From a virus (Duplodnaviria; Heunggongvirae; Uroviricota; Caudoviricetes): 4,114 bases of DNA. Below the pieces are notes generated by a model. The model did not search any database and was not told the origin of the DNA. It was given only the letters and a program-made list of their open reading frames with translations. Each line of letters starts with the position of its first letter. Position 1 is the first letter of the stretch. Both the position numbers and the translations under genes were made by a program. This document shows, piece after piece, positions 1,399 through 3,608 of this stretch. The DNA is taken from IMG/VR virus record IMGVR_UViG_2529292871_000019; one strand, written 5' to 3'.

Positions 1399-1677
1399 TT
1401 ACCTCCAGATGCGTTGCTGGAATGTGCGGGACGGACGCGGTGGCCGTTCGGAGTAAGGAAGCCTGACGGAGATTATCCAGTGACGGTAGTCGAGGCTGAG
1501 GGCTTTCTTAATCTCGTATCCGCGCCTGCGGTAACACTGAATCAGCCATTCAGCCTGTTCTTCGGTGCAGGGGTCGTGCTGATACCAGTCAGATTTGAAT
1601 GCATGAGAACGCCGCCCGTGCCTGCTGGCAGGGGCGGCAGAGTTATCCGAATTGTAAAATTTGGTATCGTGCGCCAT
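1399..1677 (-). CDS. small prophage protein, rem-like by position immediately downstream of hok
   Basis: The 135-aa ORF in the track (1399..1806) contains the hok terminator in its 5' part, so the start is taken as the internal ATG at 1677 (92 aa, MAHDTKFYNSDNSAAP...). Only a weak SD (AGAGAAA); may be expressed by readthrough. Confidence 0.5.
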   Translation of the reverse strand: MAHDTKFYNSDNSAAPASRHGRRSHAFKSDWYQHDPCTEEQAEWLIQCYRRRGYEIKKALSLDYRHWIISVRLPYSERPPRPSRTFQQRIWR

Positions 1678-1749
1678 CTGTTTTCTCTGCTGGCGCAGCA
1701 GGTGCCAGTTGTTCAGGCTGACGGATGGATTGTAAACCAGAACGACCAG

Positions 1750-1774
1750 AAAAAACAAAACCCGCCGAAGCGGG
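1750..1774 (-). terminator. Rho-independent terminator at the 3' end of the hok mRNA
   Basis: Minus strand reads CCCGC-UUCG-GCGGG followed by UUUUGUUUUUU (plus-strand stem 1761-1765/1770-1774, A-run 1750-1760). Confidence 0.8.
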
Positions 1775-1779
1775 TTAAG

Positions 1780-1795
1780 TGCGGGTGCGTTGAGG
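1780..1795 (-). promoter_or_regulatory. fbi-like 3' element of the hok mRNA, complementary to the mRNA 5' end
   Basis: mRNA 3' segment CCUCAACGCACCCGCA can pair with the 5' segment UGCGGGUGCUUGAGG (2158-2172) over 15 bp with one bulge. Confidence 0.65.
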
Positions 1796-1844
1796 ATGCC
1801 TGACACATCAGCGGTGGCGAGGGATTTCTCCCCCGCCTGGTCTC

Positions 1845-2000
1845 TTACTCCTCAGGTTCGTAAGCTGTGAAGACAGCGACCTCCGTCTGGCCGGTTCGGA
1901 TTCGTACCTCGCAGAGGTCTTTCCTCGTTACCAGTGCCGTCACTATGACGGTTAAACAGATGACGATCAGGGCGATTAACATCGCCTTTTGCTGCTTCAT
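1845..2000 (-). CDS. hokD: Hok/Gef-family type I toxin, 51 aa
   Basis: MKQQKAMLIALIVICLTVIVTALVTRKDLCEVRIRTGQTEVAVFTAYEPEE; ATG at 2000 with AGGAGA 7 nt upstream; single transmembrane segment and the conserved Hok C-terminal region. The hokD assignment is from recalled sequence and the adjacent rem-like gene, not from a search. Confidence 0.9.
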   Translation of the reverse strand: MKQQKAMLIALIVICLTVIVTALVTRKDLCEVRIRTGQTEVAVFTAYEPEE

Positions 2001-2057
2001 AACCTGCTTCTCCTTGCCTTTCGGCGCGTAAGAGGCTAACCTACGTTTGTGAAGCAT
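1845..2057 (-). CDS. mok: mok-like upstream reading frame, in frame with hok (70 codons)
   Basis: ATG at 2057 with GAGG 9 nt upstream, 19 codons before the hok ATG and in the same frame; occupies the position of mok in hok/sok loci. Confidence 0.45.
   Translation of the reverse strand: MLHKRRLASYAPKGKEKQVMKQQKAMLIALIVICLTVIVTALVTRKDLCEVRIRTGQTEVAVFTAYEPEE
2014..2042 (+). promoter_or_regulatory. putative sok promoter on the antisense strand inside the mok-hok overlap
   Basis: TTGCCT (2014-2019), 17-bp spacer, TAACCT (2037-2042); same placement as the sok promoter in the plasmid R1 locus as I recall it. Confidence 0.45.
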
Positions 2058-2122
2058 AGATTGGGCCTCAGATTAATGTTAAGCGTCTTGCAGGACGCGT
2101 AATGTTAACTGGGGCTTTTCTC
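2050..2122 (+). ncRNA. sok: Sok-like antisense RNA (antitoxin), ends approximate
   Basis: Antisense to the hok leader and mok start; long imperfect hairpin TTAATGTTAAGCGTC-TTGCAG-GACGCGTAATGTTAA (2073-2108) followed by GGGGCUUUUCUCU (U-run 2116-2123). Confidence 0.5.
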
Positions 2123-2157
2123 TGTCTGCCTTACGGTGGCATGCCCGAGGCAGACAG

Positions 2158-2172
2158 CCTCAAGCACCCGCA
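2158..2172 (-). promoter_or_regulatory. tac-like 5' end of the hok mRNA
   Basis: UGCGGGUGCUUGAGG at the predicted mRNA 5' end, complementary to the fbi-like element at 1780-1795; followed by a leader hairpin with 9-bp stem (2122-2130/2150-2158). Confidence 0.6.
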
Positions 2173-2175
2173 GCA

Positions 2176-2205
2176 ATTCTACTTAACTCTCGCTTTACCG
2201 CAAAC
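2176..2205 (-). promoter_or_regulatory. putative hok promoter
   Basis: Minus-strand -10 TAGAAT (2176-2181) and -35 TTGCGG (2198-2203, 16-bp spacer); predicted start near 2168-2172 gives an mRNA of about 420 nt ending at the terminator. Confidence 0.5.
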
Positions 2206-2214
2206 CGTTTTGCC

Positions 2215-2236
2215 CGATATGGGAATTCCCATATCG
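2215..2236. repeat. 22-bp perfect palindrome CGATATGGGAATTCCCATATCG
   Basis: Exact reverse-complement symmetry read directly from the sequence; lies between the micro-ORF stop (2245) and the hok -35 element. Confidence 0.9.
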
Positions 2237-2244
2237 TAATGAAT

Positions 2245-2349
2245 TCAGTTCCCTAGTCGATCCATCAAAAACACAACCAGGCAGTAAACGCCCACAACAG
2301 CAACAACAGCCAGCGCACCTTCCATTGCCAGTGATATATCATCCGACAT
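2245..2349 (-). CDS. candidate 34-aa hydrophobic membrane micro-protein
   Basis: ATG at 2349 preceded by AAGGAGGG; MSDDISLAMEGALAVVAVVGVYCLVVFLMDRLGN, one predicted transmembrane helix; stop TGA 2245-2247. Below the 60-aa cutoff of the ORF track. Confidence 0.35.
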   Translation of the reverse strand: MSDDISLAMEGALAVVAVVGVYCLVVFLMDRLGN

Positions 2350-2464
2350 ATTCCCTCCTTTGGTGTTAATCCCGGCGAACGTTTTTACCCTCACCGACAA
2401 ATAACATATACTAAAAAAGCGATAGCCATAGCAACGCCTGTAATTGCAAATGCTTCAGGCCAGT

Positions 2465-3334
2465 TCATTGGCGCACCTCCTGCGGCGGTTCTGGTAGAGG
2501 CATCCAGTGTGATGGTATCCACGACGCACCAGGTATTATCCACCCATCATTAGCGTCAGGATGCCCCGGGATGTAAGTCGCCCATTTCATTCGCCAGTCA
2601 CCTTTCCTGCCAAAATCCCTGGCAACAAGAACGGCTGTTTTGGTATCCGGCATTCGCTCACTACAGCTTATCCAACTATCCGGAGTTACCGGATAGTTGC
2701 CCGATAGTGCATTCTGCTCCAGTGATGCTTTTACAAACCACGCTGCCTGAACTATAACGCCATGAATCCAGCGCAAATCAGCATCGCGATCTTTCTTTTT
2801 CATCTTTTCGCCACTTAAGGCCTTGCTTATGTGGCTGCGTGCCAGGTCTTCATGTAATTCCTTCGCCTCCTCAATGGTGAAACCACCAGGCAGAAGAGCC
2901 GGAGTTACCGGAGAGCTGGTTGACGCTTCCGGGATTTTCCGAAAATTATTGGTTGACGAATCTTTATTTTCCCGAAAGTTTCCGGACTGAAACATGGCTT
3001 CGCGGCAATCGTTCCAGCCTGTAGCGTATGCAGCCGCTTTGCTGCTGCCTTCAACTGGCGCATCCTGCCAATACATTTCTTCCGGCACTATCGGCGCTGG
3101 AGGGGCGGCAAATAGATATCCGCCAAAGTCAGGAAGCTCTCTAATGGCCTGTACAAATTTTTGTTTGCCTACGTCAACCCCTAATGGGTAATGAGCTATA
3201 ATCTTTGCCACCGGCTCTGCTTCCAGCGATGCCAGCGCAATCCGTGCCAGTTCCATTTGTTCACCACGGGTAAGCCCGTTTTCAAGCGGATTTTTAATGA
3301 ACAATTCAATACGTTCTTTGGTAATAGTGGTCAT
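2465..3334 (-). CDS. prophage protein with C-terminal DUF551-type domain, 289 aa
   Basis: C-terminus WISCSERMPDTKTAVLVARDFGRKGDWRMKWATYIPGHPDANDGWIIPGASWIPSHWMPLPEPP matches the DUF551 pattern; ATG at 3334 with AAGGAG upstream that overlaps the stop of the 88-aa gene. Confidence 0.85.
   Translation of the reverse strand: MTTITKERIELFIKNPLENGLTRGEQMELARIALASLEAEPVAKIIAHYPLGVDVGKQKFVQAIRELPDFGGYLFAAPPAPIVPEEMYWQDAPVEGSSKAAAYATGWNDCREAMFQSGNFRENKDSSTNNFRKIPEASTSSPVTPALLPGGFTIEEAKELHEDLARSHISKALSGEKMKKKDRDADLRWIHGVIVQAAWFVKASLEQNALSGNYPVTPDSWISCSERMPDTKTAVLVARDFGRKGDWRMKWATYIPGHPDANDGWIIPGASWIPSHWMPLPEPPQEVRQ
2663..2689. repeat. 11-bp perfect inverted repeat CAACTATCCGG-AGTTA-CCGGATAGTTG inside the DUF551 gene
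   Basis: Arms at 2663-2673 and 2679-2689; encodes NYPVTPDSW on the minus strand. Confidence 0.8.
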
Positions 3335-3344
3335 GTGTTACTCC

Positions 3345-3608
3345 TTAACCCGCAGTGCTTTCAACTGATGAGGGGAACAAAATCTTTTCATCAAACCCTG
3401 CATTCATATCATGAACAGCAACACACCAATCCATCGACGAACGATTATCAAGAGCCTCCATGATTTCATCCATGCGGCGTAGGTCATACAGGTAAATGCT
3501 TTTATCGCCAATGGTGTAAAAGCCAATTTTTTTCGGTGATGGACAGCGATCAAGAACTTCCTGTAATTCGTTCAACCATGCCCGTTCTTTTTTTGTCAAA
3601 GTTGCCAT
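3345..3608 (-). CDS. small prophage protein of unknown function, 87 aa
   Basis: Start taken as the internal ATG at 3608 (MATLTKKERAWLNELQEVL...) because it has AAGGAAAA upstream; the track ORF start at 3698 has no RBS. Stop TAA 3345-3347 overlaps the SD of the DUF551 gene. Confidence 0.7.
   Translation of the reverse strand: MATLTKKERAWLNELQEVLDRCPSPKKIGFYTIGDKSIYLYDLRRMDEIMEALDNRSSMDWCVAVHDMNAGFDEKILFPSSVESTAG

Follow-up and report, generated by a model that had tools for sequence, protein, structure and literature searches.

Toxin loci of the hok type are regulated post-transcriptionally via Sok RNA, and the elements described in them are tac, ucb, fbi and sokT. KilA-N is a widespread, poorly understood DNA-binding domain that is found in phage antirepressor-like proteins and in BstA-type abortive infection proteins and has fungal APSES relatives. 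Phage sites can lie inside the gene of their own protein, as do the lambda ori in O, the P2 ori in A, the phiX174 origin in gene A and the P1 oriL in repL. A described system close to the one analyzed here is that of prophage BTP1, in which a 63-bp DNA element, aba, spans the bstA start codon and neutralizes BstA (Owen et al. 2021, PMC8585504). This element acts as DNA and not as RNA or peptide, is reported to be variant-specific ("cognate"), and has terminal CCCGCC direct repeats; no palindrome is mentioned in that paper (PMC8585504).

The window, by which we mean the whole 4,114-nucleotide stretch of viral DNA that was analyzed, matches a lambdoid prophage of E. coli E2855 with 95.6% identity and represents the nin region, which separates the replication genes from Q. 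On the minus strand one reads in turn a DUF551 gene, a small ORF, the palindrome that is the subject of this report, hok, a hypothetical gene, DUF968, RusA and Q (coordinates in Table 1). The putative hok promoter fits the transcription start given by the Rfam model at 2169, and the same hexamers are found in hok loci that have no palindrome; a consensus promoter scan of the window did not list it.

Table 1. Positions of the palindrome and its neighbours in the window, and of palindrome arrays in other loci (named by locus)
Feature	Position	Strand	Remarks
Orphan palindrome CGATATGGGAATTCCCATATCG	2215-2236	.	22 bp, perfect 11+11, own reverse complement
Putative hok promoter	2176-2203	-	-35 TTGCGG 2203-2198, 16-nt spacer, -10 TAGAAT 2181-2176; read by eye
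hok mRNA 5' leader and Sok antisense region	1995-2169	-	Rfam RF01794 "sok", 114.9 bits, E 1.4e-26, full-length model match
mok frame (70 aa) enclosing hok (51 aa, 1845-2000)	1845-2057	-	hok annotated hokD in E. coli E2855
Intrinsic terminator stem, 3' end of hok transcript	1759-1776	-	followed by T-run; terminator scan
Small hydrophobic ORF	2245-2349	-	34 aa as annotated in E. coli E2855; TTG-start version to 2400
Spacer from palindrome to hok -35 box	2204-2214	.	11 nt; 11, 12 or 30 nt by lineage
TAATGAATTCAGTTC, probable decayed KilA-N coding remnant	2237-2251	+	stop codons now present
Array, L139	2527-2705		four sites within 160 nt, spaced 78, 37 and 40 nt
Array, L183	1935-1996		
Array, L164	7830-8000		tandem units of about 44 nt
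Array, L175	4440-4500		directly adjacent sites
Array, L055	13856-13915		sites 36 nt apart

Several other features of the window were recorded. Downstream of hok the prophage looks defective from its sequence. Relative to the E2855 prophage, RusA (174-341) and DUF968 (354-1397) carry 1-nt deletions near positions 176 (RusA), 612 and 653, and DUF968 also has a 4-nt deletion near 705; DUF968 is split into ORFs of 255 and 53 aa, and RusA ends after 55 aa. On the minus strand, 1755-1836 weakly matches the Rfam model of isrK, an sRNA that binds Hfq and belongs to Salmonella prophage islands; the match (27.2 bits, E 0.005) is below the gathering score of 50 and overlaps the 3' end and terminator of the hok transcript. 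The DUF551 gene contains two 31-nt direct repeats that are 33 nt apart and 71% identical (2917-2980; TGGTTGACGCTTCCGGGATTTTCCGAAAATT and TGGTTGACGAATCTTTATTTTCCCGAAAGTT).

A first-pass annotation of this DNA had described the palindrome as an exact 22-bp dyad, very unlikely by chance, upstream of the hok start and near the stop codon of the small ORF, and all of this agrees with our measurements. The stretch equals its own reverse complement, with a GGA/ATT CC centre (GGGAATTCCC), and its arms end at exactly 11 nt, the outer bases C2214 and T2237 being unpaired. The runner-up perfect palindrome in the window has arms of only 5 nt, and of 5000 random windows of equal length from a first-order Markov model, 5 had 11-nt arms (about 0.001). 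The palindrome is real and far from chance. It occupies positions -46 to -67 relative to the 5' end of the hok mRNA (start at about 2169, from the Rfam model), with its centre about 56 bp upstream of that start, and is separated by 8 nt from the stop codon of the small ORF at 2245-2247. As a single strand it would fold into a hairpin of 9 bp around an AAUU loop (-14.5 kcal/mol as RNA, -8.2 as DNA), and the z score of the RNA hairpin is -4.6 on either strand. There is no T-run after it on either strand (TAATGAATTC on the plus strand, GGCAAAACGG on the minus strand), and a terminator scan of the window did not call it. An intrinsic (Rho-independent) terminator was rejected on both grounds, in line with the earlier annotation, and the terminator of hok itself lies at 1776-1759. 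The Rfam 15 covariance models gave no match at 2215-2236, nor at the corresponding palindrome in an intact gene of phage vB_EcoS-613R10, described below. A sequencing adaptor or an assembly artefact was also rejected, because hundreds of complete E. coli genomes have the palindrome in this position.

The same 22-mer is found, letter for letter, far beyond hok loci. Exact copies are present in at least 120 IMG/VR viral contigs and at 63 places in a bacterial collection with one genome per species, against about 0.03 chance matches expected in 596 Gb. Its hosts belong to the Cyanobacteria, Bacteroidota, Proteobacteria, Chloroflexota, Spirochaetota and Bacillota and range in GC content from 0.29 to 0.70; the places include Nostocales, Saprospiraceae, Rhizobiales, Betaproteobacteria, Dehalococcoidia, Brachyspira, Bacillota and enterobacteria. 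About half of the 93 distinct contexts are intact Pfam KilA-N genes (E values down to 4e-27), and others are KilA-N fragments or bare copies. Within the KilA-N genes the palindrome has one domain position, between the "F-L-x-x-L" helix and "GG...QGTWVHP", where its codons read D-M-G-I-P-I-S around a Gly-Ile-Pro turn. Comparison with the intact KilA-N versions of E. coli phages, Rhizobiales, Dehalococcoidia, Brachyspira, Nostocales and others shows the window palindrome to be identical to the KilA-N element. A Saprospiraceae-type clade has the same 22-mer at the homologous position in another frame (R-Y-G-N-S-H-I), and the use of two reading frames at a homologous position shows that the nucleotides, and not the peptide, are conserved. 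The carriers in this other frame (L126, L131, L143, L163, L167 and L185; Saprospiraceae, Aureispira and Haliscomenobacter) have three extra residues after the 22-mer.

The E. coli carrier protein (257 aa), in which the palindrome covers codons 58-64 (57-78 in the other carriers of the family), matches Pfam KilA-N and PHROG 6287, "BstA abortive infection system, replication inhibitor" (E 2.7e-89). The PADLOC BstA model matched over the C-terminal half only, NCBIfam gave no match for this protein, and a sequence search of the PDB returned only weak matches to Mbp1 (APSES). KilA-N genes whose C-terminal parts are unrelated (the Nostoc, Saprospiraceae and Calothrix types) carry the palindrome as well, which indicates that it goes with the KilA-N module. 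We found no literature description of a KilA-N palindrome in searchable full text, using the core sequence, KilA-N dyad or hairpin, and BstA follow-ups, and the dyad is apparently previously undescribed.

We then examined KilA-N genes from metagenomes that had been picked by peptide patterns outside the palindrome, DGY[VI]NATA and [QR]GTWVHP[DQ], which gave 58 unique genes. Perfect palindromes of 22-28 bp centred on GGA/ATT CC were present in 26 of the 58, with many different arms (for example GGTCCATGGGAATTCCCATGGACC, CGAAACGGGAATTCCCGTTTCG, CGATGCCGGAATTCCGGCATCG, TCCGATATGGGGATCCCCATATCGGA and GAGGTCTGCGGGAATTCCCGCAGACCTC). Among 55 aligned KilA-N genes, 92.1% of cells paired, compared with 71.8% after shuffling (0/500) and 31-51% with slid partners; the covariation score was 0.514 compared with 0.168, both sides had changed in 9 of 12 dyad pairs, and the symmetry ended at +/-12. 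Third codon positions pair with third codon positions in the DMGIPIS frame, and the third base of the Pro codon (C/G) follows the third base of the pre-Gly codon (G/C) in 52 of the 55 genes. Watson-Crick pairs made up 187 of 220 third-third pairs, whereas synonymous-codon resampling yielded 62.3 +/- 6.5, with a maximum of 88 in 2000 draws. Gene pairs whose flanks are 44-54% identical are 71-76% identical in the 22-mer. The alignments show the dyad to be conserved at the DNA level by compensatory changes in KilA-N genes. G-T mismatches were no commoner than single-step mismatches predict, as estimated from counts, and the innermost variable pair (columns 23-26) was the least constrained, from which the signal looks less like an RNA helix than like symmetry of the DNA type, in the form of a symmetric duplex site or of a hairpin or cruciform whose loop has 4 nt.

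The reading that we favour, with a probability of roughly 0.7, takes the window palindrome for an orphaned copy, and most likely for a relic, of a dyad that normally lies inside KilA-N coding sequence. The parent would be a palindrome of 22-28 bp, centred on the GGA/ATT CC of the Gly-Ile-Pro codons, within a KilA-N gene that the lambdoid prophage has since lost, so that the palindrome and about 15 flanking bases would remain at the upstream edge of the hok/mok/sok module, between the small ORF and the hok promoter, as a mosaic joint. Deletions and illegitimate recombination preferentially end at sequences that form hairpins, and such an event could have placed the joint at the foot of the palindrome. 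Should the copy retain any activity, it would be the parent element's, as a hairpin- or cruciform-prone site or as a dimer-binding site for the KilA-N-type proteins of other prophages; we infer that the window copy is neither operator nor terminator of hok.

The boundaries of homology lie close to the palindrome. In megablast comparisons with phages, homology to the hok module ends in most cases (for example Stx2-phage hokW) at 2211, 3 nt short of the palindrome. In the PPompW prophages the palindrome is exact and a further 15 nt are kept before the sequences diverge at about 2252-2254. In register with the palindrome, the right flank reads TAATGAATTCAGTTC in the window and GAATGAATTCAGTTC in PPompW, compared with GAATTAATTCAATC (S-E-L-I-Q-S) in the intact gene. 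The in-register similarity of the right flank to KilA-N has p values of 0.001-0.016 in three other hok-linked loci (L001, L016 and L105) and is borderline in the window (p = 0.02 for the mean, 0.07 for the maximum). On the left, the in-register similarity is not significant in the window and has p values of 0.006-0.03 in L001; the 11-nt spacer may hold a few bases of the KilA-N left flank, which is uncertain. Free local alignment of the hok-linked flanks with 105 KilA-N genes was no better than with shuffled sequences, and neither a KilA-N ORF nor a tblastn remnant was found around 2215-2236, where stop codons directly follow. With no in-frame KilA-N ORF at this position, we filed the window copy as an orphan and not as an intragenic member; given its borderline flank and the lack of a tblastn remnant, its origin as a relic is argued mainly from the sister loci and from the identity of the 22-mer.

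Among the sister loci, phage vB_EcoS-613R10 (ON470590.1; L269, 2109-3560) has kept its KilA-N/BstA-like gene intact; this gene encodes the 257-aa protein URE76544.1, includes the exact palindrome at codon 58 and lies divergent from hok and about 340 bp from it, in the same relative orientation as the window relic. Neighbouring hok and KilA-N/BstA-like genes were seen in several prophage lineages, intact in this phage and as stumps in the window, L001, L016 and L105. Stand-alone copies elsewhere grade from KilA-N fragments (L154, E 7e-11; L166, E 4e-7) to bare palindromes, and several have KilA-N-like bases on one side only, which suggests that unrelated DNA was joined at the foot of the palindrome. 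A mosaic breakpoint test across the palindrome gave 19 discordant pairs compared with 0 in the control, a result on which we do not rely, the right segment being short and conserved.

A target-site duplication or mobile mini-element was rejected, as the immediate flanks have no consistent duplication. Repeats around the palindrome were seen at two loci: in L011 (6840-6930) it lies between imperfect direct repeats of about 30 nt (GCAACCAATGCGCGCA...), and in L150 (around 1818) between two copies of GAAAGCGTTGTTGTTTTTTCTC. These could be either insertion duplications or iterated coding repeats.

It is conceivable, if unlikely, that the orphan copies are functional sites kept by the binding of KilA-N/BstA-like proteins from other prophages, which would be compatible with an origin as relics; by analogy with aba, such a site could act as a decoy or a self-immunity tag, or it could be a roadblock in the pR-to-Q transcription unit. 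The genes that carry the parent element code for predicted DNA binders, and in them the element is constrained at the DNA level; BstA systems are neutralized by a short DNA element in their own locus (PMC8585504). A 30-nt probe around the palindrome matched 978 of 5426 complete E. coli genomes, orphan and intragenic copies together, compared with 137 of 5426 for the intact-gene allele tested. Palindrome loci number about 1-5 per E. coli genome (median about 2, with places counted on both strands) and 4-5 in O157:H7, and the features under the E. coli matches were, among the matches listed, unannotated DNA or a KilA-N gene. In window-type haplotypes the palindrome varied less (score 2) than the 22 nt on its right side (score 20), in a set partly ascertained on exact copies, which could reflect residual constraint. 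Arrays of different GGAATTCC-centred palindromes outside recognizable genes occur in five loci (Table 1) and, from their layout, look like functional or binding-site arrays rather than gene debris. Against a function of the orphans, perfect symmetry has been lost in 12 of 38 hok-linked copies, the published aba differs in sequence and place, and BTP1 bstA has no palindrome. A second copy of a gene's own site was present nearby in only 2 of 193 KilA-N loci, which gives no sign of a multi-site operator system, and a multi-operator hypothesis was rejected on this count. In addition to the exact 22-mer, three loci (L003, 5710-5733; L024, 4052-4075; L078, 12386-12409) have another perfect palindrome at a distance of 335 nt, TAAAAACGGGAATTCCCGTTTTTA, which has the core in common with it and, from its A and T runs, looks like a bidirectional terminator.

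A related proposal, which we advance only tentatively and consider doubtful, is that the KilA-N dyad, as a portable DNA element at the Gly-Ile-Pro turn of the helix-turn-helix, is the cognate site of the protein encoded around it, serving autoregulation or aba-like self-immunity, with the orphans as decoys or immunity tags. If this were true, the orphans would let lambdoid prophages, including Stx prophages, escape defence proteins of the KilA-N type encoded by rival prophages, or come under the control of those proteins, and such orphans would be present in up to about 18% of E. coli genomes, a figure in which intragenic copies are counted too.

The symmetry could also perpetuate itself without any function. 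Quasipalindrome correction by template switching is an established mutational process in E. coli, and in both KilA-N genes and orphans it might keep the arms symmetric without selection. The occurrence of many different perfect palindromes with few intermediates would suit such a process, as would the exemption of the loop pair (columns 23-26) from pairing. It leaves unexplained, however, why the GGAATTCC centre is near-invariant at synonymous sites in hosts with GC contents of 0.29-0.70, why the palindrome keeps to one domain position in many phyla, and why there are arrays; moreover, hok-linked copies with a 1-nt deletion have gone uncorrected in seven loci. We consider this explanation improbable.

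The first-pass annotation had favoured an operator that binds a dimeric protein, and the corresponding rival here is a site at which a dimeric regulator would act on the hok promoter as operator or activator. Perfect dyad symmetry is what such a site would show, and a centre about 56 bp upstream of the mRNA start is a position used by class I activators. For a survey of hok loci, viral contigs were scanned with a 21-mer of the hok leader and kept to the part of the collection that was covered, which gave 113 loci. The palindrome was absent from 75 of these orthologous loci, exact in 26 and mutated in 12; thus 12 of the 38 palindrome-bearing loci have a mutated copy, and 7 of the 12 share a common 1-nt deletion. 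Absence from orthologous loci, coupled with no effect on expression, was one refutation proposed in the first-pass annotation, and the survey bears out its part on absence. The promoter hexamers are unchanged with or without the palindrome, which is therefore not conserved along with hok promoters and leaders. Nor does it keep a fixed distance or helical phase to the promoter: its distance from the -35 box is 11 nt in the window, whereas two other lineages have 12 nt and a fourth has 30 nt. Phage Evi has kept both the small ORF and hok, which abut directly, and lacks about 34 nt including the palindrome; the Stx2-phage hokW locus also has no palindrome. The absence, mutation and variable spacing of the palindrome argue against an operator or activator site, as do the presence of the same 22-mer in unrelated hok-free contexts of many phyla and the established control of hok by Sok RNA after transcription. 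The survey shows the palindrome to be dispensable for hok loci, and a hok operator is very unlikely. What may survive of the earlier suggestion is the symmetric protein-binding site itself, which may be true of the parent KilA-N element. A separate observation concerns L125, a variant of the Punavirus P1 from infant faeces (MH422554.1), in which a hok module (MokW) adjoins repL and kilA (1561-3412) and has no palindrome upstream.

An RNA hairpin in a read-through transcript of the upstream early operon, serving as a stabilizer, a processing site or a weak terminator that insulates hok, would fit the stable fold of either strand and the location between two transcription units. The lack of a U-tract, the silence of the terminator scan and the absence of any covering Rfam family speak against it; the mismatches in the parent genes show no G-U wobble preference, as estimated from counts, and exact conservation across phyla exceeds what a hairpin needs, so that this explanation appears highly improbable. 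A chance palindrome, in favour of which only the short length can be cited, is dismissed at about 0.001 per window and with exact copies in hundreds of unrelated contigs where about 0.03 matches are expected.

For hok biology the outcome is deflationary, the palindrome being very probably no hidden regulator of the type I toxin. Read as a probable relic, it would mark a mosaic joint at which the hok module meets the stump of a defence-type gene. The larger lead is the dyad itself, which is kept by compensatory and partly synonymous changes from Brachyspira (GC 0.29) to Dehalococcoidia (GC 0.65) and in two frames. It offers a candidate cognate site inside the domain's own coding sequence, through which DNA recognition by BstA and its DNA "antidote" would become directly testable, and which would also make remnants of KilA-N genes and the joints between modules easy to recognize in prophages by a simple sequence.

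Compared with known systems, the palindrome abuts a complete hok/mok/sok module of the kind found in R1 parB, hokW and hokD, with the RF01794 match, the Hok ORF and the terminator; it differs from the elements of those loci in lying outside the hok transcript, in being absent from most hok loci and in not being among the described tac, ucb, fbi and sokT. Like quasipalindrome hotspots and deletion end points, it belongs to perfect short palindromes that are symmetric and have unrelated DNA joined at the foot; there the sequences are arbitrary, whereas here one sequence family occupies one gene position across phyla. REP and BIME elements are also short palindromes, sometimes in small extragenic arrays, and the first-pass annotation had raised membership of a known repeat element as a way in which an operator might be refuted. 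This has come about in spirit only, the palindrome being a copy of an element that normally lies inside KilA-N genes. REPs reach tens to hundreds of copies per genome and carry GTAG or CGTC tags (PMC3733652), whereas the KilA-N dyad has about 1-5 loci per E. coli genome and is elsewhere mostly intragenic. Neither its copy number (in 978 of 5426 E. coli genomes, median about 2 loci) nor its context suits a REP-like repeat, and this reading was rejected.

What is shared with aba is a short DNA element lodged in the locus of a prophage protein whose N-terminal domain is of the KilA-N type, and the carrier protein here has the BstA C-terminal domain. The aba element, however, has no dyad and lies over the start codon, whereas the palindrome lies inside a canonical KilA-N domain and also occurs where the KilA-N domain is joined to other C-terminal domains; BTP1 bstA diverges in its N-terminal domain. 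We rejected identity with aba on sequence, place, symmetry and the absence of the palindrome from BTP1 bstA. The published 63-bp aba contains AGGTCCATATCACC, which recalls arm variants of the KilA-N dyad (GGTCCAT..., ...CCATATCAC), a resemblance noticed post hoc that may be due to chance. The origins of lambda, P2, phiX174 and P1 have shown functions and belong to replication initiators, whereas KilA-N and the palindrome are linked only by co-location and covariation. As in those phages, the site is embedded in the gene of a DNA-binding phage protein and moves along with that gene, and synonymous positions are constrained.
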